40,810 nucleotides of DNA from a virus: UHGV virus genome UHGV-0096231; one strand, written 5' to 3'. Positions within the stretch are counted from its first letter, which is position 1. Each line of letters begins with the position of its first letter. Shown one piece after another: positions 18,893 to 36,134 of the stretch. The position numbers were made by a program, and so were the translations under genes. The notes under the pieces are model-generated. The model saw nothing but the letters and a program-made list of their open reading frames with translations. It searched no databases and had not been told where the DNA came from.

Positions 18893-18894
18893 GA

Positions 18895-19519: not shown

Positions 19520-19521
19520 AT

Positions 19522-19995
19522 TTAGTATCCTATTGCTTCAAAATGCAGTGTCGGTGTTTCGCCGAGATTGGGTGTCGTATACGCCACAGTGAATCGCGTT
19601 CTTGATACGTCAGTGCCAGAATCAGTATCGCGATGCGTTGCCAGTGATTTTCCGGCCATTGTTGCCTGGGTCGAATAGCTGTAACTCGCTAGTGTTGCCA
19701 GCGTTGCTATTTGTGCATTTGGGAATTGTCTGGGGAAATTAACCCTGTAGTAATGGGTGTAGTACGTCACCCCACCAAGCACCTGCGCGTTGAAGTTACC
19801 AACTGGTGTCAGTGTCACAGTGCCAGCCTGTCGAATCATACCATTTGGGAGAATATCCCAGGCAGTTTGTCCGTTTCGCGACATACCAAATGCGGACATG
19901 TCCGGGAGTTGATTATTACCGGTTCCGACATCCCGTTTTGCCGCTTCTCCCAATTGAACGTTTATGAAAATGCAGAAATAGCGCGCAAATGGCAT
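19522..19995 (-). CDS. alternative tail fibre distal segment (StfE-like), inverted orientation
   Basis: 157-aa ORF on the minus strand ending in AIGY, matching the ALGY end of the plus-strand fibre, with a similar RDVG region. It lacks an N-terminal constant part of its own and would be expressed only after inversion. Confidence 0.6.
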   Translation of the reverse strand: MPFARYFCIFINVQLGEAAKRDVGTGNNQLPDMSAFGMSRNGQTAWDILPNGMIRQAGTVTLTPVGNFNAQVLGGVTYYTHYYRVNFPRQFPNAQIATLATLASYSYSTQATMAGKSLATHRDTDSGTDVSRTRFTVAYTTPNLGETPTLHFEAIGY

Positions 19996-20024
19996 CGTTC
20001 CTGTTTTTGTCAGGAGGAGCTATC

Positions 20025-20579
20025 ATGCTTATTGGCTATGTTCGCGTATCAACAAATGACCAGAACACCGATCTACAACGTAATGCGTTGAACTGTGCAG
20101 GATGCGAGCTGATTTTTGAAGACAAGATAAGCGGTACAAAGTCCGACAGACCAGGACTGAAAAAGCTGCTCAGGACATTATCGGCAGGTGACACGCTGGT
20201 GGTCTGGAAACTGGACCGACTGGGGCGCAGTATGCGGCATCTTGTCGTGCTGCTGGAGGAGTTGCGTGAACGAGGCATCAACTTTCGTAGTCTGACGGAT
20301 TCAATTGATACCAGTACCCCAATGGGGCGCTTTTTCTTTCATGTGATGGGTGCCCTGGCTGAAATGGAGCGTGAACTGATTGTTGAACGAACAAAAGCTG
20401 GACTGGAAGCAGCTCGCACACAGGGACGAATTGGTGGACGTCGCCCCAAACTTACACCAGAACAATGGGAGCAGGCCGGACGATTAATTGCATCAGGCGT
20501 TCCTTGCCAGAAGGTGGCGATCATCTATGATGTTGGTATATCGACACTGTATAAGAAGTTTCCGGTCGGAGATAAATGA
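20025..20579 (+). CDS. pin: DNA invertase (serine recombinase, Pin/Gin/Hin family)
   Basis: N-terminus MLIGYVRVSTNDQNTDLQ carries the catalytic serine motif of resolvase/invertase. 184 aa from the ATG at 20025 with AGGAGG RBS. C-terminal helix-turn-helix present. Same position as pinE in e14. Confidence 0.9.
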   Translation: MLIGYVRVSTNDQNTDLQRNALNCAGCELIFEDKISGTKSDRPGLKKLLRTLSAGDTLVVWKLDRLGRSMRHLVVLLEELRERGINFRSLTDSIDTSTPMGRFFFHVMGALAEMERELIVERTKAGLEAARTQGRIGGRRPKLTPEQWEQAGRLIASGVPCQKVAIIYDVGISTLYKKFPVGDK

Positions 20580-20639: not shown

Positions 20640-21509
<870 letters not shown>

Positions 21510-21583
21510 CTAAGCCTTTGAATTTACATAGTACAAAAAAGATACTTTTCCTCATAATGTGAGCTAATTTTATGTTTCGTTTG

Positions 21584-21627
21584 ATGATTGGACCGGTCTC
21601 GAAAACCGTAGGCACGTAGTATGCGTT
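21584..21627. repeat. hairpin repeat, copy B (partial)
   Basis: atgattgg ... gaaaaccgtaggcacgtagtatgc. Shares the atgattgg leader with copy C and the core with copies A and C. Lies in the divergent intergenic region between the GIY-YIG gene and the methyltransferase gene. Confidence 0.5.
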
Positions 21628-21774
21628 AATTTATGAACAAACTACTTGTCTGCTGTTTTTCTGTCATTAGTCGTATATAGAATGATTCTCTATGCCTAAC
21701 AAAGCATCACCAGTGCTAGATTACGTTGCAGTCACTGTTTAAATATCCAGATAAAACATTTCCTTCTGGGTTGA

Positions 21775-23250
21775 ATGAGTGATAAAGTTTCACCCATTAG
21801 ACCCCTTGGAGGAATTATGTCTGAATTTGAAGTGTTGGCACAGCATCTGCTGAAGGAAGCCGAGGCGGAAGAAAAGCTGCGACAGGAAAATGATAAAAAG
21901 CTTATCGAGAAAGTGCTGGAAATCTATGATCAGAAGTATGTGGCTGAATTACTGAGAAAAGTCGGAAGAAATGAGTGGAGCCGTGAAACCATTAACCGCT
22001 GGATTAATGGCAAGTGTTTACCAAAATCGTTGACTTCAGTAGAAGAGTCTCTTCTGCGTAAGATGCTACCAGAACCACCTGCAAACCATCCGGAATATGC
22101 TTTCCGCTTCATTGACTTATTTGCTGGAATTGGAGGGATACGGAAAGGTTTTGAGGCCATTGGAGGCCAGTGTGTTTTTACCAGTGAATGGAATAAAGAT
22201 GCTGTGCGTACATACAAGGCCAACTGGTTTAACGATGAACAGGTGCATAAATTCAATCTCGATATTCGGGAAGTCACGCTGAGTGATAAAACCGATATAT
22301 TGGAAACGGATGCTTATGCATATATTGATGAGCATGTGCCGGATCATGATGTGCTTCTTGCGGGGTTCCCGTGCCAGCCATTTAGCCTTGCTGGTGTTAG
22401 TAAGAAAAACTCACTTGGTCGTGCGCATGGTTTTGAATGTGAAGCACAAGGAACACTTTTTTTTGACGTGGCACGTATTATACGAGCAAAAAAACCGGCA
22501 ATTTTTGTGCTGGAAAATGTCAAAAATCTGAAGAGCCATGATAAGGGTAAAACTTTCAAAGTCATTATGGAGACCCTTGACGAGCTGGGCTACGAAGTTG
22601 CCGATGCTGCAGAAATGGGAAAAAACGATCCAAAGATTATCGATGGGAAGCATTTTTTGCCTCAGCATCGTGAACGCATTGTTCTGGTCGGATTTAGACG
22701 AGATCTGAATATTCACAAGGGGTTTACCTTGCGTGATATCAGTCGTTTTTATCCGGAACACCGCCCATCATTTGGTGAATTGCTGGAGCCTGTAGTCGAC
22801 AGTAAATATATACTTACGCCAAAACTATGGGAGTACCTTTATAACTACGCCAAAAAGCATGCAGCCAAGGGGAATGGTTTTGGCTTTGGGTTGGTCAATC
22901 CTGAGAATAAGGAAAGCATTGCACGCACACTTTCTGCCAGATATCACAAAGACGGATCAGAAATTCTTATTGATCGTGGTTGGGATATGGCAACGGGAGA
23001 GGCTGACTTTATGAATGAGAGTAACCAGGCTCGTCGACCACGCAGGCTGACTCCCCGAGAGTGCGCACGCCTTATGGGGTTTGAAAAACCTGGAGGGAAA
23101 CCATTCCGTATTCCGGTTTCAGATACTCAGTCATATCGGCAGTTCGGTAACTCCGTTGTGGTGCCAGTATTTGAAGCCGTTGCCAGACTTCTGGAACCCT
23201 ATATCCTCAAAGCTGTTTCTGCTGATGCTGGTAAGACTGGGCAGCCTTGA
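21775..23250 (+). CDS. ecoRIIM: DNA cytosine-5 methyltransferase (Dcm / M.EcoRII-like)
   Basis: C5-methyltransferase motifs are present: FAGIGG (motif I), GFPCQPFS (motif IV, catalytic Cys) and ENV. Close overall resemblance to E. coli Dcm and M.EcoRII as recalled from memory. Convergent with an EcoRII-like endonuclease gene. Confidence 0.9.
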
Positions 23251-23284
23251 GAACACCTCCCGGCCTTTTAAGCCGGGAGTCAGC

Positions 23285-24499
23285 CTATGATAGTTCAGTG
23301 TAAAGTTCTATCAGCTCAGTAATGAATGCTCCGAGCGTTATTAATTCTTCTCTAACTGCTTCTGGGTATTTTTTATGTAAAGTTGATGGTACAACGAGTC
23401 TGACACCCGCATCTTTCATTTCTCGGTATTGTGCTGAAGAAACACCTTCTTGCAGCGTAAATAAATGTACCTGATGGATTTTATCTGCTTCATTCAGTAT
23501 CTGACGCCAGCGATCTTTGCAGGTGGTCTTTACTGCCAGCATACGTAAGTTTTCTACAGGAAATTCAGCGTTATGATATGCCTCTGCTGAAGGAAACAGG
23601 AAATCTGGTTTTTTATTACCTTCAGTAACTGCCTGAGTGGAGAAATGCCGTAGTCCGTGCTCGATAAAAAGCTTCTCTAGGTGAAGTTCAAGTGATTTAC
23701 CTGCCCTTGATTTACGTCGATTACTGACAGAGTTGGCTAATGCAATAAACTCATCTACAGAATCGAATCCTTTCTTAATAATATCAAGAACATGTAATTC
23801 CTCGACGAGTAGAAAAATATCATACTCGACACGCCGACGGTCAATCAGTTGCTCATCTGGATCCTTGGAGTTTTTAGCATAATGGCCAGCAGCATATTGA
23901 ATAATTTCGTTTCCAGAAGGAAAACGCTTCTTCCAGTCTTCAGGAATAACATATTTATGATTTACTGGAGTTTGCTGAAGAGACAATCCGCCCAAAATTT
24001 GTCCGGCTGGGCCGAAAATTAGGGTTCCAGGTATGATTTCGCCAATAGCAGACTCGATGAGATCCTCTTCATCGGGATTGACGCAGACCCATATATCTAC
24101 CTCGGAACAGTCAGTGTTCTGTTCGTTTAACCTGAAAGCAAGAATTGTGAGGGCTCCTGTATTTTCAGGGTTCTGTAATGGACTTCCTCTCCCCCAGCGC
24201 GTAATTCTTTTTTCGTTTCGGGTCTTACCAAAATAACGGTTGTTGTAATAAATTGCGCGTGCTTGGGTATCAGGGCAATCATGGGATGATACATGCGCAG
24301 TAAGGAAGACTGAAGGGTTCAGTTCGCGAGTATGATTGATAGATGGAAAAAGCTTTTCAACGATATTTGAGGGGATATAAAGTCCGACCTGATGGCCACC
24401 TGTTGCGCCTGTGTCGTTTGCAGAAAGGCGTTTGATGTAGATAAAGTAATTCCCGCTTGCGATATCAAGCAGCCAGTTATGAAAAACCGACATATACAT
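23285..24499 (-). CDS. ecoRIIR: type IIE restriction endonuclease (R.EcoRII-like)
   Basis: 404 aa. N-terminus MSVFHNWLL...YIKRLSANDTGATGGHQVGLYIP and the rest match R.EcoRII closely, from memory of that protein. Partnered with a Dcm-like methyltransferase. The true start may be the second Met. Confidence 0.85.
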   Translation of the reverse strand: MYMSVFHNWLLDIASGNYFIYIKRLSANDTGATGGHQVGLYIPSNIVEKLFPSINHTRELNPSVFLTAHVSSHDCPDTQARAIYYNNRYFGKTRNEKRITRWGRGSPLQNPENTGALTILAFRLNEQNTDCSEVDIWVCVNPDEEDLIESAIGEIIPGTLIFGPAGQILGGLSLQQTPVNHKYVIPEDWKKRFPSGNEIIQYAAGHYAKNSKDPDEQLIDRRRVEYDIFLLVEELHVLDIIKKGFDSVDEFIALANSVSNRRKSRAGKSLELHLEKLFIEHGLRHFSTQAVTEGNKKPDFLFPSAEAYHNAEFPVENLRMLAVKTTCKDRWRQILNEADKIHQVHLFTLQEGVSSAQYREMKDAGVRLVVPSTLHKKYPEAVREELITLGAFITELIELYTELS

Positions 24500-24570
24500 C
24501 CCTTTGTTAACATACAGTCAGGGTTAACATTTTTCCATAGTTATAGATAAGCGGCTAGGAACTTAAGGGA

Positions 24571-24603
24571 AAAACAAAAAGCCCGCATAAGCGGGCTTTT
24601 GTG
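24571..24603. terminator. bidirectional Rho-independent terminator-like hairpin
   Basis: aaaaacaaaaa-gcccgc-ataa-gcgggc-ttttgtg: a GC stem flanked by an A-run and a T-run. Lies upstream of the endonuclease start, between divergent genes. Confidence 0.5.
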
Positions 24604-24722
24604 TCACTCGAGAGCCGCGGCTCCTTTGCGTATCCTTTTTTGTCTCCTCACCGTCTGGTCGGTGTCCTGCTGAGACTGCTAACTTCCTGTTTTCGTTGGT
24701 GTTGTCCTTACACCGTTCAATC

Positions 24723-24788
24723 ATGATTGGTGGAGCTTGCGGGAGTTGAAACCGCAGCCACGTCGTATGCAAGAACGTGCTGCGGTTG
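24723..24788. repeat. hairpin repeat, copy C
   Basis: atgattgg ... accgcagccacg-(13 nt loop)-cgtgctgcggt. Same core as copies A and B. Confidence 0.6.
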
Positions 24789-25257
24789 GCTGGTGAACTT
24801 CCGATAGGGCGAGTATTGAATGATTTACAGCCGTTATTGATTTTACATATTTTTTGTATGAAAGGATTAGCGTCTCCTCCCACCGATCCTCCATGGCTTT
24901 ACGCCAGTGTCTCTAGGACTGCTATGTGCCATAAGCGGAAGTATTTAACAACTATCAGTGTTGTTCAACAGATAAAGGGGCACTTGATTTTTTCTGTTCT
25001 CAGGAAATGATAAAAGCGCGTCGGTTCAAGCCTGCTTAACGGGAGTTTGTTAATCCTGTTGCCGTGACGTTTTGACACCATTATGATGGGGAGACACTTA
25101 ATGTATGAAGGTTCCGCCACTTATACCTGTCCAACAACTGCCTCGGGTGTTTCTTTGTATGAATAAGTGGTAATGAGTAGTGAATCGCTAACAGTCACCC
25201 GAACAATCGGTGCCTGCAATTAATTCTATATTCTAAACGAGGGGGAGATTATTACAC

Positions 25258-26238
25258 ATGAAATTTAAGGACAAGAACCTTAAGGCTCTCGCGGAATGTA
25301 TCATAGGAGATAATAAGGCATTTCTGTATCGTTCAAGCAGTCACATCACTGAATTTTTCCAGGACTGCGGCATGGATGTTACTCATGACGGATCCACTCG
25401 GTGGAAATGGACGGCCCAGAGGCTTGAAGAACTTCTTTATGAGCCACAGTCAAAGCCACATACTTTGCCGGAAAGGTTTGTTCATGTGCTCAGAACTTTA
25501 ATGTTAAAAGAAGATGCAATGGATGACGATCCAGGAAGATTAAAGGCGCTTGAAGAACTGAACAAGCCTTTGATGCGGGAAGGCTATGAGGCATTCTATG
25601 GTGACGATCGCCTTTTGTATATACGCCATACCGATACCAAAACGGTTTCAGTCAGTAATAACCCTCATCGGCCCTTAACGCCTCACGAAGTAGAATGCAG
25701 AAGGTTACTGACCGCGTTTCTTGATACCTGCTCAGAAGATGAGTTAATAGAAGATATTCTCCTTCCTTTATTCCGGCAACTTGGTTTTCACCGGATAACA
25801 GCAGTGGGACATAAAGATAAAGCGCTGGAATACGGGAAAGACATCTGGATGAAGTTCACACTGCCAACTCAGCATGTTCTTTATTTCGGCATTCAGGCAA
25901 AAAAAGGTAAGTTGGATGCGTCCGGTGCCAGCAAATCTACGAATTCAAACGTGGCAGAAATCTTCAACCAGGTACTGATGATGCTTGGCCATGAAATATT
26001 TGACCCAGAAACAAATAGAAAGGTGCTGGTAGATCATGCCTTTATCGTTGCTGGCGGAGAAATTACTAAACAGGCGAGGAACTGGCTGGGCGGGAAACTT
26101 GATGCCAGCAAAAGAAGCCAGATAATATTTATGGACCGGGAAGACATTCTTAATTTATATACTGTAAGTAATGTACCTCTGCCAACAGGTGCTCTCATCT
26201 CTGATGATGCCGTTAAGAACGATGATATTCCTTTCTAA
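25258..26238 (+). CDS. hypothetical protein with PD-(D/E)xK-like nuclease motif (candidate defence gene)
   Basis: 326 aa, AT-rich, GGAG RBS. The segment ELIEDILLPLFRQLGFHRITAVGHKDKALEYGKDIWMKF...HVLYFGIQAKKGK fits an E...D...(Q)xK restriction-endonuclease-fold pattern. Function not established. Confidence 0.5.
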   Translation: MKFKDKNLKALAECIIGDNKAFLYRSSSHITEFFQDCGMDVTHDGSTRWKWTAQRLEELLYEPQSKPHTLPERFVHVLRTLMLKEDAMDDDPGRLKALEELNKPLMREGYEAFYGDDRLLYIRHTDTKTVSVSNNPHRPLTPHEVECRRLLTAFLDTCSEDELIEDILLPLFRQLGFHRITAVGHKDKALEYGKDIWMKFTLPTQHVLYFGIQAKKGKLDASGASKSTNSNVAEIFNQVLMMLGHEIFDPETNRKVLVDHAFIVAGGEITKQARNWLGGKLDASKRSQIIFMDREDILNLYTVSNVPLPTGALISDDAVKNDDIPF

Positions 26239-26733
26239 TCAGAAGTACGTCTTTTTCTGAAAGAATACGTGATAGGTAGCCACACCACACCTTTAGTGAC
26301 CCCTTAATCTGGTAATATAACAGCCCGTATGAATGTCCGCGGCATCGCGGGCTGAAATTTATTAAAAATACTTATTCATCAAGCTGGAGTAGTTTGCCGA
26401 GTAACTGTAAACGCCCAACTTAACCGGACCATTCACTTTTAGATTGCTACCAGCAAACCAACTTCCGTTTCTCGCTCATAACAGACATTAACTACAGTTA
26501 TGGTAGAAGGTATGCATACTGGGTGGGGAAAGTATGAAGGAAAAGAAGACTGCTGCGCAGTTTGTCGTCACATTTATCTTCATTGGCTATGCAAGTCATA
26601 ATACAAGGTGGGACAAAACTGAGACACATAAGGCCTCACAATGACTTGCAAGGCTTTACATGTTTTGATGTGGTGGGACGTGTGAGCGCAGTATTGATGG
26701 GGTAATACTTTGAATTAGAAGCGGATTCTTATA

Positions 26734-26779
26734 ATTCGTAATGCGAAGGTCGTAGGTTCGACTCCTATTATCGGCACCA
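26734..26779 (+). other. att core: 46 bp identical to the 3' end of tRNA-Thr(CGU) (thrW), not an intact tRNA
   Basis: ATTCGTAATGCGAAGGTCGTAGGTTCGACTCCTATTATCGGCACCA matches thrW from the anticodon loop (CGT) through the T-arm and acceptor 3' end. The 5' half of the tRNA is absent, so this is a duplicated attachment-site core. Confidence 0.8.
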
Positions 26780-26796
26780 TTCAAACATCTCCCCAA

Positions 26797-26880
26797 GTCT
26801 ACTAAAGTCTTTCAAAACCCCTTATAATCCGCGTATTAAAGCCCCGTTCGTCTTTTGACGTCTACTAAAGTCCCTCAAAA
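26797..26880 (+). promoter_or_regulatory. putative integrase arm-type binding sites (direct repeats)
   Basis: gtctactaaagtc occurs twice (26797-26817 and 26860-26880), plus inverted gggggtac/gtaccccc motifs nearby at about 26890-26935. All lie between the att core and the integrase start. Confidence 0.45.
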
Positions 26881-26944
26881 TCTACGGTCAGATGGGGGTA
26901 CTTATGGGGGTATTTGCTGTTCGGTTTAGTGGAGGTACCCCCAA

Positions 26945-28159
26945 GTGAAACTCAATGCCCGTCAAATAGACACAGCCAAGCCAAAAGAGAAGGCTTACAA
27001 GCTGGCCGATGGTGGCGGTTTGTATCTCTTGGTAAAACCTAATGGAGGTAAATACTGGCGACTTAAATATCGTGTAGCTGGTAAAGAGAAGCTATTGGCA
27101 CTAGGTGTGTATCCTGAGGTTACTCTAGCCGATGCTCGGGCAAAACGTGAAGATGCGAAAAGAGGTATCGCTGGTGGTATCGATCCGATGGAAGCGAAAC
27201 GAGAGGAAAAGATTGCCCGGGAAACGCAGTTAAACAACACCTTCAAAGATATTGCCCTTGAGTGGCACAGCAGCAAATTAAAAAAATGGTCTGCTGGTTA
27301 TGCTTCAGACATCCTCGAAGCCTTCAACAAAGATGTGTTCCCTTACATTGGCAAAAAACCAATCGCCGAAATCAAACCACTTGAACTTCTGAATGTGCTG
27401 CGGCGCATCGAGGGGCGCGGTGCTACAGAAAAAGCCAAAAAAGTGAGGCAGCGGTGCGGGGAAGTTTTCCGCTATGCAATAGTCACTGGTCGCGCAGAGT
27501 ATAACCCTGCACCAGACCTTACTAGCGCGATGCAAGGCCATGAATCTAATCATTACCCTTTCCTTACAGCTAAAGAATTACCTGATTTTTTCAAGGCATT
27601 GTCCAGTTACTCAGGAAGCGCATTGGTTGTTATGGCGGCTCGTCTACTGATTATCACCGGCTTGCGGACTGGCGAACTACGTGGCGCATTATGGGATGAA
27701 ATTGATTTCAACAAGGCTATCTGGGAGATACCCGCTTCACGTATGAAAATGCGGCGGCCTCATATTGTGCCATTGTCTGATCAGGCTCTTTCGCTTATTG
27801 GGAAGATTAGAGAAATAACAGGCAATTACCCTCTTATGTTTCCCGGGCGCAATGATCCAAGGAAAACAATGAGTGAGGCCAGCATAAACCAAGTGTTTAA
27901 GCGCATTGGCTACGCTGGACGTGTAACTGGTCATGGGTTCCGGCACACTATGAGCACGATTTTGCATGAGCAGGGCTATAACACCGCGTGGATAGAAACG
28001 CAGCTCGCTCACGTTGATAAGAACTCAATTCGTGGCACATACAACCATGCGCAATATCTGGATGGAAGGCGGGAGATGCTTCAATGGTATGCCGACTATA
28101 TGGATTCTCTCGAGCATGGCGGAAATGTGGTGCATATGGTGTTTGAAAAACACGCATGA
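26945..28159 (+). CDS. tyrosine integrase (P4 family)
   Basis: 404 aa. N-terminus KLNARQIDTAKPKEKAYKLADGGGLYLLVKPNGGKYWRLKYR is the typical P4-type integrase arm-binding domain. C-terminal catalytic region with HGFRHT...Y. GTG start. Immediately downstream of the tRNA-derived att core. Confidence 0.9.
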   Translation: MKLNARQIDTAKPKEKAYKLADGGGLYLLVKPNGGKYWRLKYRVAGKEKLLALGVYPEVTLADARAKREDAKRGIAGGIDPMEAKREEKIARETQLNNTFKDIALEWHSSKLKKWSAGYASDILEAFNKDVFPYIGKKPIAEIKPLELLNVLRRIEGRGATEKAKKVRQRCGEVFRYAIVTGRAEYNPAPDLTSAMQGHESNHYPFLTAKELPDFFKALSSYSGSALVVMAARLLIITGLRTGELRGALWDEIDFNKAIWEIPASRMKMRRPHIVPLSDQALSLIGKIREITGNYPLMFPGRNDPRKTMSEASINQVFKRIGYAGRVTGHGFRHTMSTILHEQGYNTAWIETQLAHVDKNSIRGTYNHAQYLDGRREMLQWYADYMDSLEHGGNVVHMVFEKHA

Positions 28160-28429
28160 AACAACTGGACAAGTATACAGAGGTTTACTAAAGTATAGGG
28201 GAGTAGATTGATAAAAACTCACAGAGGATTGCTATTTAACAGTTAGCCCTGGAGAAGGGCAATCGCTCTTTTATAAACGAAGGTGTATTGAGCCTTCTAC
28301 GTCGCTGACAAAGCGGAATGTTCTTTAAAACTACTGGATGTCACGCCTAATAGCGTGATCCTGCCGAAATGCAGGGTAGCTCTACCCTTGTGGAGCAAAC
28401 AAACCAAAACAATCTGACTATCTTTTATA

Positions 28430-28464
28430 AAAGACCGCAATATGTTTTTCATATTGTGGTCTTT
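28430..28464. promoter_or_regulatory. 15-bp-stem hairpin / palindrome upstream of alpA
   Basis: aaagaccgcaatatg-ttttt-catattgtggtcttt, one mismatch in the stem. Candidate operator or terminator. Confidence 0.35.
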
Positions 28465-28550
28465 GGCGTATTCGACATTTGACGCAAATAAAACTCTCGC
28501 CATTCGTTGCAGGAGGGGGTTATTGCGTCATTAGTACAGGATATTAATAA

Positions 28551-28754
28551 ATGGCTAATTACAATTCATTAATTCGTCTCTCTGAAGTTCAAAGGCGAAC
28601 TGGTTATAGCAAAGCATGGATTTATCGTCTTATTAGTCAGGGGAGGTTCCCTAAACAGGTAAAAATTGGAAGTCGGGCAATTGCTTTTGTTGAGTCTGAA
28701 ATAGATGAATGGATTGAGAAGTGTATATTAGAATCTAGAGACGAGGTGGCCTGA
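28551..28754 (+). CDS. AlpA-family transcriptional regulator / excisionase
   Basis: 67 aa. LIRLSEVQRRTGYSKAWIYRLISQGRFPKQVKIGSRAIAFVESEIDEWI is the canonical AlpA helix-turn-helix pattern. Confidence 0.8.
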   Translation: MANYNSLIRLSEVQRRTGYSKAWIYRLISQGRFPKQVKIGSRAIAFVESEIDEWIEKCILESRDEVA

Positions 28755-29185
28755 TGGAAAAGAAAAACCGCCCATTACAGGCGGCTAATTCAGATATTCG
28801 TGTATCTGATGTTACGCCCCTTACAAAATCCCTTCAAGCACCAAAGCGCACACCGAAAAAGCATCGTGCCAGAGTCTATATGCTGCGTACTGGTATAGAG
28901 GGATGGACAGAAAATGACATTCTTCGCTACTGCCGTCTGTCTTCTGGTCGTAACTATGCAACAGAGTTAGAACGCCAGCTTGGAATCACTCTGGAGCGTA
29001 TCGACGAAAAGAATCCTGATGGTATCGGAACACACCTTCGCTACCGTTTCTCCTGCCGTGGTGATGTTCTGAAAGTGATCACTCATATTAACCATCTTGC
29101 GAACATAAATGATCACAACGGACTTTCTCAGCAGGAAATTGCCGACATTCTGAAACTCTACCCGGACGCGTTTAACGCCGCCTAA
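28754..29185 (+). CDS. hypothetical protein
   Basis: 143 aa, ATGA-coupled to alpA. Confidence 0.5.
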   Translation: MEKKNRPLQAANSDIRVSDVTPLTKSLQAPKRTPKKHRARVYMLRTGIEGWTENDILRYCRLSSGRNYATELERQLGITLERIDEKNPDGIGTHLRYRFSCRGDVLKVITHINHLANINDHNGLSQQEIADILKLYPDAFNAA

Positions 29186-29197
29186 CGGAGACTGAAA

Positions 29198-30031
29198 ATG
29201 AACATCGAAAAAAGCAGATTAATTTCTGAGGCTGCCCCTCATCTGAACGCCTCTCTGGGCACAATTAACGGTAATGAATTTGCCGCAATTGTCCCGGTTA
29301 TTCCTGGTCATATCGGTGGGCGTGAAACCAATATTGTTAGCGCAAAAGCGTTACACAAAGCGTTGGGCGTGGGAAAAGACTTCTCTACATGGATCACTGA
29401 TCGCATCTCTGAATATGACTTCACCATTGGGCACGATTACTCAGTCCATAAAACAATTTCCCCAAATTTGGGGAAAAGCCCGAATGGCGCGGCTTACAGC
29501 AAGATTAAGCAGTCTGGCAGACCCGGCAAAGACTATCTGTTAAGTGTCGGAATGGCGAAAGAACTGGCAATGATCGAACGCAATGATCAGGGTCGCGCTA
29601 TCCGTCGTTATTTCATCCAGTGCGAGGAAGAATTACAGCGTAGCGTGCCTGAAATCGCCGCCCGCTATCGTCGCCAGCTAAAAGCCCGTATTAGTGCCGC
29701 AAACAACTTTAAGCCAATGTGCGATGCGCTGAATATGGCCCGTGCCGAGCAGGGGAAAACGACGCAGCAACACCACTACACAAACGAGAGCAATATGATT
29801 TCTCGTATCGTTCTTGGTGGGCTAACTGCTAAGCAGTGGGCGCGGATAAATGGCTATTCTGGCGAACCTCGCGACCATATGAACGCAGAACAGCTTGAGC
29901 ACCTCTCATATCTCGAAAGCACCAATATCACGTTAATTGATATGGGCATGGAATATGAGCAGCGCAAAGGAGAACTCACCCGCCTGTCGCAACGCTGGCT
30001 CGCCAAGCGTCTGGAGGCGGTCCATGTTTAA
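29198..30031 (+). CDS. phage antirepressor-like protein (AntA / KilAC-type)
   Basis: 277 aa. The segment KDFSTWITDRI ... DYLLSVGMAKELAMIERNDQGRAIRRYFIQCEEEL resembles Ant-type antirepressor domains. Assignment from memory of the motif. Confidence 0.5.
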   Translation: MNIEKSRLISEAAPHLNASLGTINGNEFAAIVPVIPGHIGGRETNIVSAKALHKALGVGKDFSTWITDRISEYDFTIGHDYSVHKTISPNLGKSPNGAAYSKIKQSGRPGKDYLLSVGMAKELAMIERNDQGRAIRRYFIQCEEELQRSVPEIAARYRRQLKARISAANNFKPMCDALNMARAEQGKTTQQHHYTNESNMISRIVLGGLTAKQWARINGYSGEPRDHMNAEQLEHLSYLESTNITLIDMGMEYEQRKGELTRLSQRWLAKRLEAVHV

Positions 30032-30206
30032 GCCGACAGGAACACCACAACCTCAAAAACGCTACAAAGATGCCCACGGAGCACTCGTTACTGTCGAAAG
30101 CGTGTCTCACAACCGAGTGACGTTTTATCGCGACGGGTATCAATCGCCATGCGTACAACCGCTGGCACGTTTCATGAAGGAGTTCGCGGAGGTTAACAAA
30201 TGCTAA
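30027..30206 (+). CDS. small hypothetical protein
   Basis: 59 aa starting at an ATG that overlaps the ant stop (ATGTTTAA). Translational coupling suggests it is a real gene. Confidence 0.35.
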   Translation, partial: FKPTGTPQPQKRYKDAHGALVTVESVSHNRVTFYRDGYQSPCVQPLARFMKEFAEVNKC

Positions 30207-31267
30207 CCGCCCAGAAGAAGATATTTTCACTGGCTGGTATGTCGCCAAAATCCAGCAATATGACAGCAAAGTCAGACATTAATACAGCAGATACAAGCAA
30301 AGTTTATCATTTGCTGGTGGTCGGAACGGATGCCTTAACCATACCAGAAATCTCGGGCGATGATATTAGCATTGAGAAGGTCAGCGGCTGCGCCAGAAAA
30401 TTTCTGGTCGTAGATGATGTCTTCAGCTCGTGTAGTGACTCCACAAAAACATTCGTCCACGCGCGTGACGTTAACGAAATGAGCGCGATGTACTGTGCTT
30501 CTGGTTCTTCCAATAGTGAGTTTTCGGAGTCCATAAAAAAGAGCTTGCCGTTATGCGGCAACACGGTTTATGGTTATAAGGCACCTCATAAAACGGGTGC
30601 CGGGATTGGCGTCCTGGTAAATCGAATGGCGACATATGACGCGCCGAGCGTCTTTTTTTATGTCGTAGGTCTGACTCACCCATTTTTTGGGCGTTGGTGT
30701 ATAATCCAGCGCCTTTGTCAATCAATGGTGGCTCAGGCAGGGGCTTCTTCGGAAGCGCCGGTATCCATTCGAGCCGGTTACGCCAACCCTGTCTGGGCTA
30801 CCACCAGCGAAATTGGCGTTTCCGGTGGTAGCGTTACATGCTATCGAATGGAGGCTGCCACATGCTGGCTACTACCCCTACCCAAAAACCGCAATTTATC
30901 TGGATTATCGCCGCAGTTCGCCGCGATTGCCCGACAATTACCGCCAAAATTCATCATATTGCTGCCGAGTCTGAACGCGATGCTCGCCGTTCTCTGGTGC
31001 GCGATCACATCTGCTTTTTTGCTGGTCGTATCCGCATGGAGGTGGCACATGATTAAAACCTACGATGTGCATATGGATCCCCTCGAACGCACAAGCCAGA
31101 TCATCACACTGACAGAAGTGATTAACGATATTCTGGTGAGCAACTCTCCCTCACGAGACGAAAAACTGAAGGCGTTACTCGCGATATTGGACCTCGCCGT
31201 TCGTGACGTTCATTTCCTGCTGGAAGGTGGACAAATGCCATGCAAAACGGGGGCAACCAATGAATAA
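30200..31267 (+). CDS. hypothetical protein; ORF boundary anomalous (the in-frame read-through to 31267 is probably not one gene)
   Basis: The start is coupled to the upstream stop (ATGCTAA). The frame has no stop until 31267, yet the region 30862-31056 shows better codon usage in another frame. Possible frameshift or fusion. Confidence 0.3.
30862..31056 (+). CDS. small hypothetical protein
   Basis: 64 aa from the ATG at 30862 with GGAGG RBS. Codon usage (ctg, ccg, cgc, atc, acc) is more host-like than the overlapping frame. Confidence 0.45.
   Translation: MLATTPTQKPQFIWIIAAVRRDCPTITAKIHHIAAESERDARRSLVRDHICFFAGRIRMEVAHD
31049..31267 (+). CDS. small hypothetical protein
   Basis: 72 aa. ATG overlaps the previous stop (ATGATTAA). 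Confidence 0.4.
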   Translation: MIKTYDVHMDPLERTSQIITLTEVINDILVSNSPSRDEKLKALLAILDLAVRDVHFLLEGGQMPCKTGATNE

Positions 31268-31454
31268 CTCAATTAATACCCCTCGCCTTACGTCCGCACT
31301 TCAATTAATCGAGCAAGCAGCGGCTGTCCCGGTTGCTGTCAGTCTTTCGGCTGAAGAAATGGACGCTGCTGATGTCGTGGATGCGATTAAAGCGTGCTCA
31401 TCTTTGGTTAACGATGCCCGTGCCGAGCTGGTAATTCTTGGGGGTGAAAAATGA
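31260..31454 (+). CDS. small hypothetical protein
   Basis: 64 aa. ATG overlaps the previous stop (ATGAATAA). Confidence 0.4.
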   Translation: MNNSINTPRLTSALQLIEQAAAVPVAVSLSAEEMDAADVVDAIKACSSLVNDARAELVILGGEK

Positions 31455-31714
31455 ATATCACCTTAATTTATCGTCATCCGTGTGAGCTGGAAATTGAATC
31501 ATTGCTGGGGCGCGAAGAGCCATATCCAGACACATTCACTCCCGCAGATTGCGCGACTGAACGGCTTACCAGAGCGCGCACAGGTCTGGTTCATGTGATG
31601 AATGAGATTGTTCCCTCGGTGGGAGGGGAACAGGCGACAGTAATCAATAGCTGGCTACAAAAAGTTACCTCCCTGATAGATATCGGTTTAATCGATGTGG
31701 AGAGTGCGAAATGA
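31451..31714 (+). CDS. small hypothetical protein
   Basis: 87 aa, ATGA-coupled. Confidence 0.4.
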   Translation: MNITLIYRHPCELEIESLLGREEPYPDTFTPADCATERLTRARTGLVHVMNEIVPSVGGEQATVINSWLQKVTSLIDIGLIDVESAK

Positions 31715-31932
31715 CCAACATCCAGCTCATTGAAGCGCAATGTCGCATCGAACAGGTTCAGACTGTTTTAGGGTTCTGGCTTGAAGGGGCCAGCCCCTGC
31801 AACAGAGACAAGTTAATGATTGGCGCGGTTATGTCACTGCTCAATGGCGTACCAGAAGCTATTCAGGAAGCGGACGAATTGTTGGGCAAATATGAGTTAC
31901 AGAATCATTCAGGCGAGGCGAAACATGAATAA
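31711..31932 (+). CDS. small hypothetical protein
   Basis: 73 aa, ATGA-coupled. Confidence 0.4.
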   Translation: MTNIQLIEAQCRIEQVQTVLGFWLEGASPCNRDKLMIGAVMSLLNGVPEAIQEADELLGKYELQNHSGEAKHE

Positions 31933-32527
31933 TTTCTTAACTTTCCATGCAGAAGCAACGCCTGACGGCGTAAACATCATGTACCGCAGCAACGATGGCA
32001 TGACAGAACGCGTTGATACCGTCTCATATATTGATGCCGTAAATCGTCTGGATGCCGGGGATTATGACGATAAACCAGATGAAGGCATGTTTATACATCT
32101 CGCTATTGCCAGTGGCGGCAACCAGGGATATTTCGATTACACATCACAGCATCACGTGATTATGTGGCGCTGGCTGATAGCAACAGCATTCATCAATGAA
32201 ATGAGAAAGGAAAACGGCACCGTCAGCATTATTGATGACAGTGGCAATCATTCCGTGGTTTCTGTTTATTCCAATGGCATCGTCGCCATGCCGCTGTATC
32301 CAGTAGCAGAGCGCCTCGCTATGGCAAACAACATTGAGGGCGCAATGATCGAGAAATATGGTGTTGATGTCGGAACAAAGAATGCCATCATTTTTTACAG
32401 CAACATGTTCGATGTCGAACAGGGAACACTCACTTCGTTTGGGCGAGAAGTGCTTGCCGATCTTCACAACAGCTTTATTGCCGAACTAAACGAAAACGGC
32501 ATCCCAGAAGCACCAGTGACGCACTAA
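31925..32527 (+). CDS. hypothetical protein
   Basis: About 200 aa from the ATG at 31925, which overlaps the previous stop. Directly precedes the primase gene. Confidence 0.5.
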   Translation: MNNFLTFHAEATPDGVNIMYRSNDGMTERVDTVSYIDAVNRLDAGDYDDKPDEGMFIHLAIASGGNQGYFDYTSQHHVIMWRWLIATAFINEMRKENGTVSIIDDSGNHSVVSVYSNGIVAMPLYPVAERLAMANNIEGAMIEKYGVDVGTKNAIIFYSNMFDVEQGTLTSFGREVLADLHNSFIAELNENGIPEAPVTH

Positions 32528-32539
32528 ACGGGGGCCAGA

Positions 32540-34891
32540 ATGCGAAACATTGATCTTATCCGTCAGGTTATCAGTGCGTCTGAAAACAACTGGCCTCATG
32601 TGCTGGGCTGCCTGAACATAAATGTCCCTGACTCTCCGCGCCGTCATGCTCCCTGCCCTGCATGTGGGGGCAAAGATCGATTCCGGTTCGATGACAACGG
32701 GCGCGGTAGCTTCATCTGTAATCAGTGCGGCGCTGGTGATGGGCTGGATTTAATTAAACGCGTAAATAACTGCGACACAACAGAGGCGGCGCTTCTTGCC
32801 GCTGATGTTCTGGGTATTGATTACCGGACAACGGAAACACCAGAAGCCACCAGCCAGAAACGGGAACAACTGGAAACCGAGCGCCAGCGACGCGAACAGG
32901 AGCGCCTGAAAAGGGCAGAGAAGGACGAACAACAAAGACGGGATACGTTTTCCCGTCAGTTTGATGACATGCGCAGAAAGGCTGTAAACGGCAAATCTGA
33001 TTATCTGGTTGCGAAAGGGGTAGGTGATTTTACATTCCCCGTGTTGCCCGATGGATCTCTGTTGCTGGCGCTGGTGGATAAATCCGGCGCAGTCACAGCA
33101 GCACAGACTATTACCTCACATGGTGAAAAAAGACTCCTGACAGGTTCGGCAAAGCGGGGGGCATATCACGCCATAAACGCACAGAAACGACCTCACAGCA
33201 TCATAATTGCTGAGGGGGTGGCTACCGCCCTGTCGTGCCATTTAATTCGCCCTGACGCAATGACAGTGGCAGCAATCGACGCTGGCAACCTGTTGCCAGT
33301 AGCGGAAGTCATGCGCAGAACATATCCGCAGGCACAAATAATCATTGCCGCAGATAACGATCACCAGCAAGGAGACTCAGAAAGTGGAGGGATCAACACG
33401 GGGAAAGATGCCGCAGAGAGGGCCGCTATTTCCGTAGCTGGCAGGGTGTCTCTGCCACCGACTGACTATAAAGCCGACTGGAACGACTATCACCAACAAC
33501 ACGGGCTGGCGGCAGCCACAGCAGCATTTAAAGATTCGATGTACCAGCCACGGGGGAAAGGGGCGCAGGTGAAAAATCACAAACAGTCAGTCGGGGCGCT
33601 GAATGAGATCAGTTCTGGCGAGGTGTTAAGCGATGATGAAATTGCTGTCCTCGAAGAAATCAACCGGACGTTTACGCATGTCACCATCGGCGGGAAACAC
33701 AAGGTGGTGTCGCTAAAGCCTTCTCAAACCGGCGGTGTATCGCACGTTTTCGAGGATTTATCACAATTTCAGCATTATTTTCATCATAAACCGAGAGTCG
33801 CCAGAAAGCTGGCGGGATCGGCGTGGCTGTCATGGAGTGGGAAGAACTACAAGCCAGGAGGCGTAGGATTTTATCCAGTACCAGACAAATGCCCTGACGA
33901 TGTTTTTAATCTGTATGAGGGGCTGGCACTGGAACCAATTGAAGGAGATTGCACGGTATACCTTAATCACCTGTTGCAGGTTGTCTGTGCCGGTAATGAA
34001 GAGGCATACCAATATCTTATCCAGTGGATGGCGCACATTATCCAAAAGCCTGATGAAAAACCGTCCGTGGCAATCGTGATGAAATCTGTCCCGGGCACAG
34101 GGAAAGGCACAACGGTTAAACCGCTGCTGCAAATACTGGGGCAGTACGCCGCCCACATTAACGGGGCGGGACATATTTCAGGGCGCTTCAATTCAATACT
34201 TGCTAACAAGCTACTGGTATTTGCTGACGAAGTGACGATCCACAAGCCGTCTGAAGCTGACAGACTTAAAGCGATTATTAGCGAACCGACGTTTAACCTT
34301 GAGCGCAAGGGAATTGATGCTGAACCAATGCCGAATTTTGCCCGGTTGATATTTGCCAGTAACAGCACACAGGTATTACAGGCAGGGATAAGAGAGCGTC
34401 GCTATCTCGTGCTTGAGCCATCTCCTGAAAAAGCACAGAGCCGGGAGTATTTTGATCGGCTGTACAGTTGGCTTAATGATGGCGGTGCCGCAAAGTTGCT
34501 TTGGCATCTTAAAGGGGTGGATCTCTCAGGTTTTGACCCTCAACGAGCGCCACAGACCGATGCCTTACGTGAAGAAATCTTGCTGGGGCTGTCTGGCGTT
34601 GAATTGTTTCTTTATGGCGAGCTAATCAATGAACCTCCGTTTAATGGCGAAGTCCGTTTGTTTGCAAAGGATATGGTTAGTCGGTTTGTAGCGTGGTCGC
34701 TTGAGCGTGGGGAAAAGCTTAAAGAACCAGCTGCCAGATCACTACTGGGTAAATCACTTGCACAAATGGGGCTGGTGAAGCATGGAAGACCAGACCGAGG
34801 GAATGGCGTGTTCTACGAACTACCAGAGGTCGGAGTTCTACAGGCTGCGTTTGCCCGTCTGATCGGTATGGGGGGTTATGATGTTTTTTAA
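32540..34891 (+). CDS. P4 alpha-like primase-helicase (zinc-binding / toprim primase + D5-type helicase)
   Basis: 783 aa. N-terminal Cys cluster CPACGGKDRFRF...FICNQCGAGDG (zinc-binding primase domain), a toprim-like middle region (IIIAEGVATALS, AADND), and a C-terminal P-loop-like VPGTGKGTT. Confidence 0.85.
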   Translation: MRNIDLIRQVISASENNWPHVLGCLNINVPDSPRRHAPCPACGGKDRFRFDDNGRGSFICNQCGAGDGLDLIKRVNNCDTTEAALLAADVLGIDYRTTETPEATSQKREQLETERQRREQERLKRAEKDEQQRRDTFSRQFDDMRRKAVNGKSDYLVAKGVGDFTFPVLPDGSLLLALVDKSGAVTAAQTITSHGEKRLLTGSAKRGAYHAINAQKRPHSIIIAEGVATALSCHLIRPDAMTVAAIDAGNLLPVAEVMRRTYPQAQIIIAADNDHQQGDSESGGINTGKDAAERAAISVAGRVSLPPTDYKADWNDYHQQHGLAAATAAFKDSMYQPRGKGAQVKNHKQSVGALNEISSGEVLSDDEIAVLEEINRTFTHVTIGGKHKVVSLKPSQTGGVSHVFEDLSQFQHYFHHKPRVARKLAGSAWLSWSGKNYKPGGVGFYPVPDKCPDDVFNLYEGLALEPIEGDCTVYLNHLLQVVCAGNEEAYQYLIQWMAHIIQKPDEKPSVAIVMKSVPGTGKGTTVKPLLQILGQYAAHINGAGHISGRFNSILANKLLVFADEVTIHKPSEADRLKAIISEPTFNLERKGIDAEPMPNFARLIFASNSTQVLQAGIRERRYLVLEPSPEKAQSREYFDRLYSWLNDGGAAKLLWHLKGVDLSGFDPQRAPQTDALREEILLGLSGVELFLYGELINEPPFNGEVRLFAKDMVSRFVAWSLERGEKLKEPAARSLLGKSLAQMGLVKHGRPDRGNGVFYELPEVGVLQAAFARLIGMGGYDVF

Positions 34892-34920
34892 TATAGTCTT
34901 TTTACAAGAAGATCGTTTTT

Positions 34921-35026
34921 ACCTGTACCACCTATACCACTTTGCTAATTCAGCATTAAAAACAATGTGTTATAGTGGTACAGGTCAATATCTTACCTAT
35001 ACCAGACCTGTACCACCTATACCATT
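34921..35026. repeat. iteron cluster 1 (ACCTGTACC / GGTACAGGT family)
   Basis: cctgtaccacctatacca occurs twice as a direct repeat (34922-34939 and 35007-35024), with an inverted copy tggtacaggtc between. Immediately downstream of the primase gene. Confidence 0.6.
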
Positions 35027-35067
35027 AACAAACGCATTTCTTCTGGCTGGCTGAGAGGGAACAACCA

Positions 35068-36025: not shown

Positions 36026-36030
36026 ATAAA

Positions 36031-36134
36031 TGGTACAGGTCTGTACAGGTGGGGAGAGGTCATTTTTACCCACCTGTACCACCTGCAGGCCGCGTCACAC
36101 AAGGGTTTGTGACATGGTGGTACAGGTGGTACAG
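36031..36134. repeat. iteron cluster 2 (GGTACAGGT family) with central palindrome
   Basis: tggtacaggtctgtacaggtgg, cacctgtaccacctg and tggtggtacaggtggtacag are copies of the same motif as cluster 1. A gtcacac...tgtgac palindrome lies at 36094-36113. Confidence 0.6.

Follow-up and report, generated by a model that had tools for sequence, protein, structure and literature searches.

The tRNA-Thr fragment between an SfV-like prophage and an EcCIMP1-type island: a probable composite attachment junction at thrW

The sequence analysed here is a stretch of 40,810 nucleotides from a virus genome (UHGV-0096231), in the following called the window. Within it, the 3' portion of a tRNA gene separates prophage genes from the gene of a P4-type integrase. 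Which elements meet at this fragment, and which part of it does each of them use for recombination? A preliminary description had proposed two elements inserted in tandem at one tRNA site. The analysis agrees with this proposal: the 46-bp fragment is very probably a composite attachment junction, at which two independent integrative elements are stacked at thrW. From left to right, the junction consists of the P arm of the phage, the shared core and the P' arm of the island.

The tRNA fragment and the prophage to its left

The 46-mer ATTCGTAATGCGAAGGTCGTAGGTTCGACTCCTATTATCGGCACCA at positions 26734-26779 (+ strand) is identical in all 46 residues to positions 31-76 of thrW, which encodes the E. 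coli tRNA-Thr(CGU). The preceding base 26733 is an A, where thrW has a C. Allowing for up to three mismatches, this is the single match in the window, and none is expected from shuffled sequences. ARAGORN detected no tRNA gene in the whole window; the 5' half of thrW is therefore absent. The exact match and the lack of the 5' half had both been described correctly. The fragment represents the 46-bp att repeat at the right junction (P-O-B') of an SfV-like prophage, and it holds the attL core of the island on its right.

Positions 1-20579 (+) contain the late region of a myovirus prophage that resembles SfIV, SfII and SfV in nucleotide identity and Pfam content. It comprises genes for an HNH protein, terminase, portal, HK97-type capsid, Mu-type sheath, tube and baseplate, and tail fibres; the Pin invertase is encoded at 19989-20579. 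Over ~17 kb (1138-18436), the nucleotide identity to SfIV, SfII, SfI and SfV is 97-98%. The prophage extends leftward past the contig end: the source contig, represented by L007 and L022, which both show 0 mismatches where they overlap the window, stops 2 nt left of the window, and it includes neither the int/xis end of the prophage nor proA.

At the site where the Shigella phages bear gtrABC, the prophage carries a cargo block (20640-26238). According to Pfam, it encodes a GIY-YIG protein (20640-21464, -), a Dcm-type C5 methyltransferase (21775-23250, +) and an EcoRII-type endonuclease (23285-24499, -), which are followed by a hypothetical protein of 326 amino acids (25258-26238, +). The junctions of SfIV, SfII, SfI, SfV and SfX have the same 46-bp core and, as here, cargo between the tail fibre genes and attP; in SfIV this cargo is gtrIV-gtrB-gtrA. 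All five phages possess a P22-type integrase, target thrW and duplicate the 46-bp repeat. The position of the cargo is the same and its content differs: an EcoRII-type restriction-modification system, a GIY-YIG protein and a hypothetical protein take the place of gtrABC. In contrast to the Shigella records, the window stems from a human gut metagenome contig with the yagP-paoDCBA flank of E. coli genomes. The same cargo also precedes the core in CRE1493, ECO20, Sanji and BNFJ01000001.

The attP-proximal arm (P arm) of the SfV-like prophage occupies 26458-26733 (+), with homology to PK8276 beginning at ~26458, and is common to other thrW prophages that bear different cargo. The 150 nt left of the core agree with the left arm of SfIV attP in 126 positions. 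Alignable homology to SfIV begins at 26609, and the corresponding BLAST match (26609-26785) has 96.6% identity. SfIV attP contains the same 46-mer, and its right arm agrees in 149 of 150 positions with the flank that adjoins the intact thrW of CRE1493 on the int side. The left element combines the core, the phage-side arm and the structural module of an SfV/SfIV-type right junction at thrW. Judging from synteny and from the comparator genomes, the source genome probably has an intact thrW beyond the far left end of the prophage.

The island to the right

As had been described, the core lies between the prophage cargo and the gene of a P4-family integrase. This gene (26945-28159, +) starts with GTG 165 nt downstream of the core and codes for a tyrosine integrase of 404 amino acids. 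According to Pfam, the protein contains the domains Arm-DNA-bind_3 (DUF4102; 1e-28), Phage_int_M (1e-34) and Phage_integrase (1e-26); it shares 42% identity with P4 Int over 405 amino acids (E = 8e-116). Its domains, its location 3' of the target tRNA with a reading direction away from it and the predicted arm sites on both sides place it in the P4 family. A genome scan covered 24 loci encoding integrases with at least 71% identity to Int. An intact tRNA-Thr(CGU) gene ends ~165 nt upstream on the same strand in 22 of these, and the remaining two have thrW 3' fragments upstream. The clade is thrW-specific across ~13 genera.

Judged by its sequence, the right-hand element is an EcCIMP1-type phage-inducible chromosomal island, of which only 52% aligns with EcCIMP1 at the nucleotide level. 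All 404 residues of Int and all 67 residues of the AlpA-family winged-helix protein (28551-28754, +; Phage_AlpA, 7e-20) are identical to those of EcCIMP1, and the attL and attR regions, the latter at the right end, agree to 99.1% and 99.7%, respectively. The island body (28754-40810, +) encodes an AntA antirepressor, a DUF4222 protein, an Ash family protein, isrK-like and C4/CI-type RNAs (30581-30808), a P4-alpha-like primase (32540-34891) and two P22-type ejection proteins, which are gp20-like (36794-38155) and gp16-like (38155-40260). On the source contig the island continues for 4.3 kb past the window with Abi_2, PerC and PRiA4_ORF3. Its gene set comprises antirepressor, Ash, primase, DNA-transfer proteins and PerC and is devoid of capsid, tail and lysis genes. 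No psu, sid or delta gene was recognisable in the island, and the window yielded no helper-type phage.

The order AntA-DUF4222-Ash-primase-ejection protein-PerC-PRiA4 is that of EcCIMP1. The two islands differ in their primases, which are of the 783-aa DUF5906 type here and of the 918-aa DUF927 type in MP1, and in their gp20 and gp16 alleles. Furthermore, the island described here lacks the gp14/gp7-like genes and DUF2824, and it has Abi_2 where EcCIMP1 has alpA_1. EcCIMP1 of E. coli MP1 (ISME J 2025) is flanked by TCCTATTATC and excises, for which int and alpA are required (PMC11773190). Its helper-phage-dependent excision, circularisation and transfer were shown in MP1 with phage Kapi1, and it sits in thrW between proA and yagU (PMC11773190). 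It is plausible to assume that the copy found here is still mobile. In MP1 the intact thrW directly adjoins the island, after which comes a Vat island, whereas here the prophage lies between thrW and the island. A new class of satellites with P22-type ejection proteins was considered, and a literature search for phage satellites with ejection proteins gave no match; the idea was dropped because the EcCIMP1 paper names these genes DNA transfer proteins (PMC11773190). K-12 CP4-6 was rejected as the closest relative, because it encodes another integrase, IntF, whose gene is at the opposite end, and because its repeat comprises 49 nt.

Two elements sharing one attachment site

A second copy of the core was not found within the window, either with the 46-mer or with 20-mers at up to three mismatches, or with exact matches of at least 12 nt from 26650-26960. 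These thresholds missed the far repeat because it lies outside the window and is exact over 10-11 nt only. It was recovered by means of a 10-mer search of the extended contig. The right end of the island is located 18.3 kb downstream and consists of a thrW repeat, TCCTATTATC-GCACCA, that adjoins yagP (attR core at window-equivalent positions 45095-45110; second copy of TCCTATTATC at 16941-16950 of L022). The contig reads TCCTATTATC-GCACCATT at the island end, and beyond it follows the ancestral downstream flank of thrW, yagP-paoDCBA. Relative to thrW the far repeat has a 1-nt deletion, and the same deletion is present at the right repeat in MP1, where the island excises. The expectation of further core copies outside the window was thus borne out in part: a thrW repeat closes the right element, but it is shorter than 46 bp.

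The repeat also indicates how the fragment is divided between its neighbours. The block found again at the far end of the island is the 17-nt TCCTATTATCGGCACCA at 26763-26779 (+), which begins with TCCTATTATC (26763-26772, +), the direct repeat published as the att core of EcCIMP1 (PMC11773190). The full 46 bp are used in recombination by the left prophage only; the right element uses only the last ~10-17 nt. In one locus of the integrase clade (L045), a thrW suffix of 19 nt is found at a tandem junction.

In complete E. coli genomes each element occurs alone, with breakpoints exactly at the fragment, which supports tandem integration. The order proA - intact thrW - island - yagP is found in MSB1_8G and in further complete genomes (coverage of at least 80%), and in island-only genomes the homology begins exactly at 26734 in 15 of the 15 matches listed. 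Conversely, in BNFJ01000001 the prophage cargo and the core are followed directly by yagP. The combined arrangement is found in CRE1493, which has the order proA - intact thrW - int/xis - SfV-like prophage - same cargo - 46-bp core - P4-type int. The proposal of two elements in tandem at one tRNA is also borne out by the flanks of the core, an SfIV-type attP arm on one side and an EcCIMP1-type attL arm on the other.

A tandem arrangement at thrW is ordinary and has been documented before, and the current understanding remains unchanged. SfI was shown experimentally to insert at the intact-thrW end of a resident SfX, which results in a tandem (PMC3306764). In this S. flexneri lysogen, too, two thrW elements are split by an att copy (PMC3306764). 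The two phages share one integrase type and one 46-bp core, whereas the window combines two integrase families and overlapping cores of unequal lengths. For the window, the order in which prophage and island arrived at thrW is a deduction.

Other origins of the junction have to be weighed against this stacking of two elements. As the window stems from a MEGAHIT-style k127 metagenome contig, elements of two strains might have been joined through the shared thrW repeat during assembly. No complete E. coli genome has the whole of 25200-28200 at more than 87% identity, and a single contig connects the island with the cargo left of ~26458. However, P arm, core and int (26458-28200) are contiguous at 98-99% identity in at least 15 complete genomes; cargo, core and int start (25200-27283) are contiguous at 96.5% in ECO20 and ECO21; and the same architecture exists in CRE1493, Sanji and PK8276. 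Moreover, the 46-bp repeat is shorter than k = 127. A chimera is therefore very unlikely, and it could touch only the linkage of this cargo to this island variant, not the kind of junction. Still less probable is a single composite prophage, whose cargo would include the tRNA fragment and the second integrase without a second integration event. The adjacency and the phage-related nature of both parts speak for this reading, but complete genomes contain either part by itself at thrW, with breakpoints at the core edges, and SfIV attP ends at the core. The right part also has its own att repeat and predicted arm sites at both ends, and its Int and AlpA are identical to those of EcCIMP1, which was shown to excise by itself. 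The missing 5' half could also be taken as the sign of a decayed tRNA pseudogene that arose by deletion and is unrelated to site-specific recombination. This origin has a negligible probability, as the fragment matches thrW in 46 of 46 positions and shows no decay, and it begins on the left at exactly the base where the SfIV/SfV att core has its edge and where the homology breakpoints lie.

Candidate binding sites and a possible mechanism

Two classes of repeats lie between the core and int. The first comprises the tandem pair ATGGGGGTACTT ATGGGGGTATTT at 26892-26915 (+), predicted arm-type sites of Int (P'), and a third, inverted site TTGGGGGTACCT at 26933-26944 (-), which ends 1 nt before the GTG of int. 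A further predicted pair is present at the far end of the island (window-equivalent positions 45012-45035). Five of the seven occurrences of GGGGGTA on both strands of 50 kb lie within the two att arms. The TGGGGGTAY pair is found in each of the 24 thrW-clade loci; all copies change between T and C in concert, and the G5TA/G5CA state tracks columns 29, 52 and 55 of the Int N-domain across four lineages. In P4 (NC_001609, features annotated as 'attP arm sequence repeat'; Pierson and Kahn architecture), each arm contains a tandem pair of the 12-bp repeat TGGGGGYAY, the core is likewise a tRNA 3' end, and int starts beside the core. P4 targets leuX and has GGGGGCA repeats (TGGGGGCAY), whereas the island targets thrW and has GGGGGTA. 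The inverted repeat of P4 overlaps the int ATG; its counterpart in the window stops 1 nt short of the GTG. The TGGGGGTAY repeats are thus predicted to be the P4-homologous arm sites of the island. A promoter scan of 26500-27000 gave no match to the sigma-70 consensus.

The second class, confined to the int-proximal arm, consists of TCTAC repeats of a protein-binding type. The 13-mer GTCTACTAAAGTC occurs exactly twice (26797-26809 and 26860-26872, +), and each copy extends to a repeat of 21 nt; a third (G/A)TCTAC direct repeat, ATCTACG, is found at 26880-26886 (+). Any exact 13-mer repeat was observed in 3 of 20000 shuffles of the 165-nt spacer. The (G/A)TCTAC repeats are kept in 17 of the 24 thrW-clade loci. 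Near the far end, no copy of GTCTACTAAAGTC was detected at up to two mismatches, and apart from the two exact copies there is a weak one at 28183.

The GTCTACTAAAGTC motifs had been put forward as arm-type sites, in which case they would be bound by the N-terminal domain of the P4-family Int. The exact duplication between core and int, the conservation in related islands and the presence of TAAA, which also occurs in the IntS arm sites of KplE1, are compatible with this function. However, GTCTACTAAAGTC is absent from the far arm, where the TGGGGGTAY pair is present, and it is the TGGGGGTAY repeats that share their layout with the annotated P4 arm repeats TGGGGGCAY; the sites of KplE1 read GGGTAAAA and are of the G-run type (PMC2951348). 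In addition, the two classes switch independently, as L040-42 combine TCTAC with G5CA, and the N-domain residues of Int follow G5YA and not TCTAC. It is therefore unlikely that Int binds GTCTACTAAAGTC, which is confined to the int-proximal arm, whereas TGGGGGTAY matches the P4 arm repeats in both sequence and layout. The motifs are probably not arm-type sites.

The TCTAC repeats form a second, independently evolving class and are possibly sites of AlpA as excision factor or regulator. Their position corresponds to that of the TorI sites in KplE1 attL (PMC2951348), and the order in KplE1/CPS-53 attL is core, excision-factor direct repeats, and G-run arm sites over the int promoter and start (PMC2951348). 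Int is ~49% identical to the IntS orthologues of Sf6 and HK620. KplE1 differs in its target, argW, and in its excision-factor repeats, which are five of the GTTCG type versus three TCTAC in the island. Furthermore, the TorI gene is situated at the far prophage end, whereas in the island the gene for AlpA adjoins int. No convincing IHF consensus was seen by eye beside the TCTAC repeats. In L044-L050 all three repeats read TCAAC and AlpA belongs to a different subfamily. The change from TCTAC to TCAAC occurs only in these loci, where both Int and AlpA diverge; the assignment of TCTAC to AlpA is confounded because the switch coincides with the divergence of both proteins.

The following mechanism very probably accounts for the junction. 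SfIV/SfV-like phages integrate by means of a P22-type integrase through the 46-bp core, which is identical to thrW 31-76; this rebuilds an intact tRNA at the int-proximal end and leaves the phage P arm plus the 46-bp core at the other end, as seen in the window. The P4-family integrase of the island recombines at the same end of the tRNA, within its last ~10-17 nt (TCCTATTATC), and the second copy of the TCCTATTATC block, beside yagP, constitutes the right end of the island. The inverted arm site abutting the start of int probably also mediates autoregulation of int, and the TCTAC repeats between core and arm sites would most likely be bound by the AlpA of the island. The predicted attP of the island reads TGGGGGTACTTTTGGGGGTAT-58 nt-TCCTATTATC(G)GCACCA-TTCAAACATC, and after loss of the island the site should consist of the phage arm, the 46-mer with the G deletion and TTAAAATC.

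A more far-reaching reading of the TCTAC repeats is speculative, and we regard it as doubtful. It takes them for AlpA operator or excision sites, whose code (TCTAC versus TCAAC) would co-evolve with AlpA subfamilies independently of the arm code of the integrase (GGGGGTA versus GGGGGCA). When the elements are stacked, these sites have the phage P arm beside them instead of the tRNA 5' half, and binding of phage Int, Xis and IHF on that side could then influence the expression of the island int or the excision of the island. If true, this would give a prophage and a satellite a physical route of cross-talk outside any helper-client relationship.

The result is mainly an aid to annotation. The length of the tRNA fragment tells the type of integrase: 46 nt correspond to the P22/SfV type and 17-19 nt to the P4 type. 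The 1-nt-deleted repeat beside yagP is a mark of a past or present EcCIMP1-type island. Moreover, the recently described satellite EcCIMP1 is placed in a human gut metagenome, beside an SfV-like prophage in which a restriction-modification system replaces the O-antigen genes. The predicted site map, with five TGGGGGTAY and three TCTAC repeats, offers concrete targets for studies of how the excision of the island is controlled.

The junction at thrW and the phage on its left

The 46-mer ATTCGTAATGCGAAGGTCGTAGGTTCGACTCCTATTATCGGCACCA at 26734–26779 (+ strand) is unique in the window when up to 3 mismatches are allowed (chance expectation 0), and it is identical to positions 31–76 of E. coli thrW, which encodes tRNA-Thr(CGU). 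ARAGORN found no tRNA gene in the whole window; the 5' half of thrW is therefore missing. The exact 3' match and the P4-family integrase beside it had both been noticed in the preliminary description. The integrase ORF (26945–28159) encodes 404 residues with the Arm-DNA-bind_3/Phage_int_M/Phage_integrase architecture and 42% identity to P4 Int (E 8e-116).

To the left, window 1–18.4 kb matches, at 97–98% identity, the structural genes of SfIV, SfII, SfI, and SfV, myoviruses that convert the serotype of Shigella. Invertible tail-fibre genes and a Pin invertase follow, and then a cargo of a GIY-YIG protein, a Dcm-type methyltransferase, an EcoRII-type endonuclease, and a 326-residue hypothetical protein (25258–26238). 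In SfIV, gtrIV-gtrB-gtrA lie between tail fibre genes and attP, where the window has its cargo, and int-xis lie on the opposite side of attP. The left arm of SfIV attP is identical in 126 of 150 positions to the sequence left of the core, the central part contains the identical 46-mer, and the right arm matches in 149 of 150 positions the sequence after the intact thrW of E. coli CRE1493. The window thus contains the exact "P arm + core" product expected of such a phage integrating into thrW. The complete order in CRE1493 is proB-proA-thrW(intact)-int-xis-early genes-lysis-terminase-head-tail-pin-GIY-YIG-Dcm-EcoRII-hypothetical-46-bp core-P4-type int.

Within the cargo, 20640–24499 comprises a complete EcoRII-type restriction-modification pair, with an endonuclease of EcoRII N and C domains, and an accompanying LEM-3-like GIY-YIG protein. 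These genes occupy the exact slot of the O-antigen gtr genes in the Shigella relatives. Since the genome PK8276 carries the retron Ec67 reverse transcriptase and a DUF262 protein there, the slot behaves as a defence-gene hotspot. For the 326-residue protein, whose gene adjoins the P arm, a Pfam search gave no match and the contig index lists 5163 blocks; among the places shown, it occurs in two prophage contexts, one SfV-like (at thrW) and the other a Rac/Qin-like lambdoid region by a truncated integrase. In the invertible tail-fibre segment (18134–20579), gp53-like fibre C-termini and assembly genes lie on opposing strands (18134–19305, +; 19522–19995, -), adjoined by the Pin-type serine invertase (19989–20579); its orientation differs between the window and CRE1493. 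Terminator-like hairpins lie on the - strand of the P arm (26620–26654), 80–115 nt from the core, within a block (26472–26668) whose similarity to phage 21 and lambda-like phage DNA is 88.5%. Once the phage is circular, the hairpins would sit downstream of int across attP, like the lambda sib/tI retroregulation site.

The island and its far end

EcCIMP1, a phage-inducible chromosomal island described in E. coli MP1, measures 19,963 bp, is integrated in tRNA-Thr between proA and yagU, and is bounded by TCCTATTATC; its excision and circularisation occur only when the P22-like helper Kapi1 is present and require the island's own int and canonical alpA (PMC11773190). In a comparison with the MP1 genome, the right element was identical in Int (404/404 residues) and AlpA (67/67; gene at 28551–28754), with 99.1% identity in the attL region, 94.4% in the regulatory module, and 99.7% at the right end. 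In contrast, it carries other alleles of the primase and ejection modules, and nucleotide alignment covers only 52% of the element. This makes it a mosaic within the EcCIMP1 family. Its AlpA-family gene is followed by AntA, DUF4222, Ash, isrK-like and C4/CI-type RNAs (30581–30808), a P4-alpha-like primase, and P22-type gp20-like and gp16-like ejection proteins; Abi_2, PerC, and PRiA4_ORF3 lie in the last 4.3 kb of the island, which extends rightward beyond the window on the source contig.

The Rfam matches (isrK, 67 bits; C4/CI-type antisense RNA, 79.5 bits) fall inside the 355-residue "Ash" ORF (30200–31267), which is probably over-extended. The contig's own gene calls place no gene in 30206–30862, where MP1 is annotated with a truncated ash gene and an Icd-like gene. 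A P4/P1-like RNA immunity locus is one possible reading of this region. Furthermore, two other islands (L017, on JAXKKJ010000001 near ligB-gmk-spoT-recG, and L018) share a block of primase, DUF2824, P22 gp7, gp20, gp16, a 155-residue ORF, and PerC; as this block occurs at thrW and at another chromosomal site, the EcCIMP1-type body travels with differing integration modules.

A human gut metagenome contig of 94,456 bp (ERZ920059 k127_62660) has the window at its end; two contig loci (L007, L022) overlap the window with 0 mismatches. Leftward, the contig extends just 2 nt past the window, short of any intact thrW. A second copy of the core outside the window, on which the preliminary description had made its reading depend, was sought on this contig, and a shorter one was found. 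This far end, TCCTATTATC-GCACCATT (window-equivalent 45095–45112), repeats the 3' end of thrW with one nucleotide deleted. To its right lie TTAAAATCAAAGAG and yagP-paoDCBA, a flank identical to that of the thrW repeat ending CP4-6 in K-12. Because EcCIMP1 excises in MP1 with the same deleted repeat, the deletion is no bar to recombination, and the crossover must therefore fall in or near TCCTATTATC. The junction thus holds two nested cores, of 46 nt and ~17 nt. The ~17-nt target of the island is found in intact thrW as well as in the 46-bp copy, and either element may have arrived first.

In BNFJ01000001 (11477–11525 of locus L011), an SfV-like prophage without island has a right repeat of 40 nt of the core plus the 1-nt-deleted ending ATC-GCACCA, which otherwise marks the island far end (compare window 26734–26779 and L022 16941–16958). 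It looks like a scar left in the past when an EcCIMP1-type island was lost through recombination within TCCTATTATC.

Candidate arm-type sites and proposed AlpA repeats

In the P4 record, the 12-bp features annotated as "attP arm sequence repeats" comprise two tandem pairs, one on either side of the core, and an inverted copy that overlaps the int ATG. The layout here is the same, with TGGGGGTAY instead of TGGGGGCAY: a tandem pair ATGGGGGTACTT ATGGGGGTATTT (26892–26915), an inverted copy (26933–26944) abutting the int GTG start, and a far-arm pair ATGGGGGTACTT TTGGGGGTATCT 58 nt before the far core on the source contig. Five of the seven occurrences of GGGGGTA in 50 kb (both strands) are the TGGGGGTAY sites of the two arms. 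Within each of 24 thrW-clade loci, CRE1493, and P4, all copies are GGGGGTA or all are GGGGGCA, and this state co-segregates perfectly with columns 29 (L vs E/Q), 52 (L vs R), and 55 (L vs F) of the Int N-domain. On these sequence grounds, the TGGGGGTAY repeats are the best candidates for integrase arm-type sites.

The preliminary description had proposed this role for GTCTACTAAAGTC, which is indeed repeated between core and int, with exact copies at 26797 and 26860 inside a 21-nt repeat; when the 165-nt spacer was shuffled 20000 times, only 3 shuffles had an exact 13-mer repeat of any kind. The proposed role is unlikely, as the motif is confined to one arm and the P4-type repeats fit better. 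GTCTACTAAAGTC belongs to another class of repeats, (G/A)TCTAC, present in three direct copies (26797, 26860, 26880) and restricted to the int-proximal arm. In L044–L050, all three TCTAC are changed to TCAAC and the neighbouring AlpA is of a different subfamily (42–50% vs 62–77% identity); Int diverges there too. L040–L042 have kept TCTAC although their G-run repeats have switched to GGGGGCA; each class thus evolves independently of the other. In KplE1 attL, the excision factor TorI binds five sites at the equivalent position (PMC2951348), and P4 has TCCGA/G-type repeats there. The location in one arm, the AlpA subfamily switch, the independence from GGGGGYA, and the TorI position are the grounds for assigning the TCTAC repeats to AlpA as putative sites, an assignment to which we give even chances.

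Stacking at thrW

Each element occurs alone in complete genomes, with breakpoints at the core. Sequences matching 26400–40810 with ≥80% coverage were found in 29 complete genomes, and among the 15 listed the match always starts at query 333–335, i.e. at 26734 or ≤2 nt off. MSB1_8G has the order proA-thrW(intact)-int-island-yagP without prophage, and in BNFJ01000001 yagP comes immediately after the SfV-like cargo and core. In other genomes this phage arm with its core precedes a Vat island (ECO20), another P4-type island (CRE1493, Sanji), or a second lambdoid prophage (L013); in MP1, EcCIMP1 and a Vat island are stacked. Tandem SfI-SfX lysogens at thrW have been produced experimentally, the incoming phage using the intact-tRNA end (PMC3306764). 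The independent occurrence and the documented stacks thus support the tandem reading well.

An assembly chimera is unlikely for the junction itself, given that 26458–28200 is contiguous at 98–99% in at least 15 complete genomes and 25200–27283 at 96.5% in two. Base-exact breakpoints and the independent occurrence of each part contradict both a single composite element and a decayed tRNA pseudogene. Stacked integration at thrW is real and was correctly read in the preliminary description; both partners and the stacking phenomenon have already been described. The useful corrections are the identification of the right element as an EcCIMP1-type phage-inducible island, the nested cores, the location of the island far end, and the reassignment of the arm-type sites.

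Scanning one genome per species yielded 80 integrase relatives. Where Int is at least 71% identical, all 24 loci adjoin thrW, and in 22 of them an intact tRNA-Thr(CGU) ends ~165 nt upstream of int. Relatives at ≤69% identity adjoin other tRNA genes (Gly-CCC, Arg-UCU, Sec, Ser-UGA, Phe, Arg-CCU). The two remaining thrW loci, in Phytobacter and Enterobacter genomes, have a thrW suffix (L039, 45 nt, 2281–2325; L045, 19 nt, 2013–2031), each preceded by an opposite-strand integrase gene. They are stacked arrays in other genera; stacking at thrW is therefore not confined to E. coli, and the length of the thrW fragment reports the core size of the neighbouring element.
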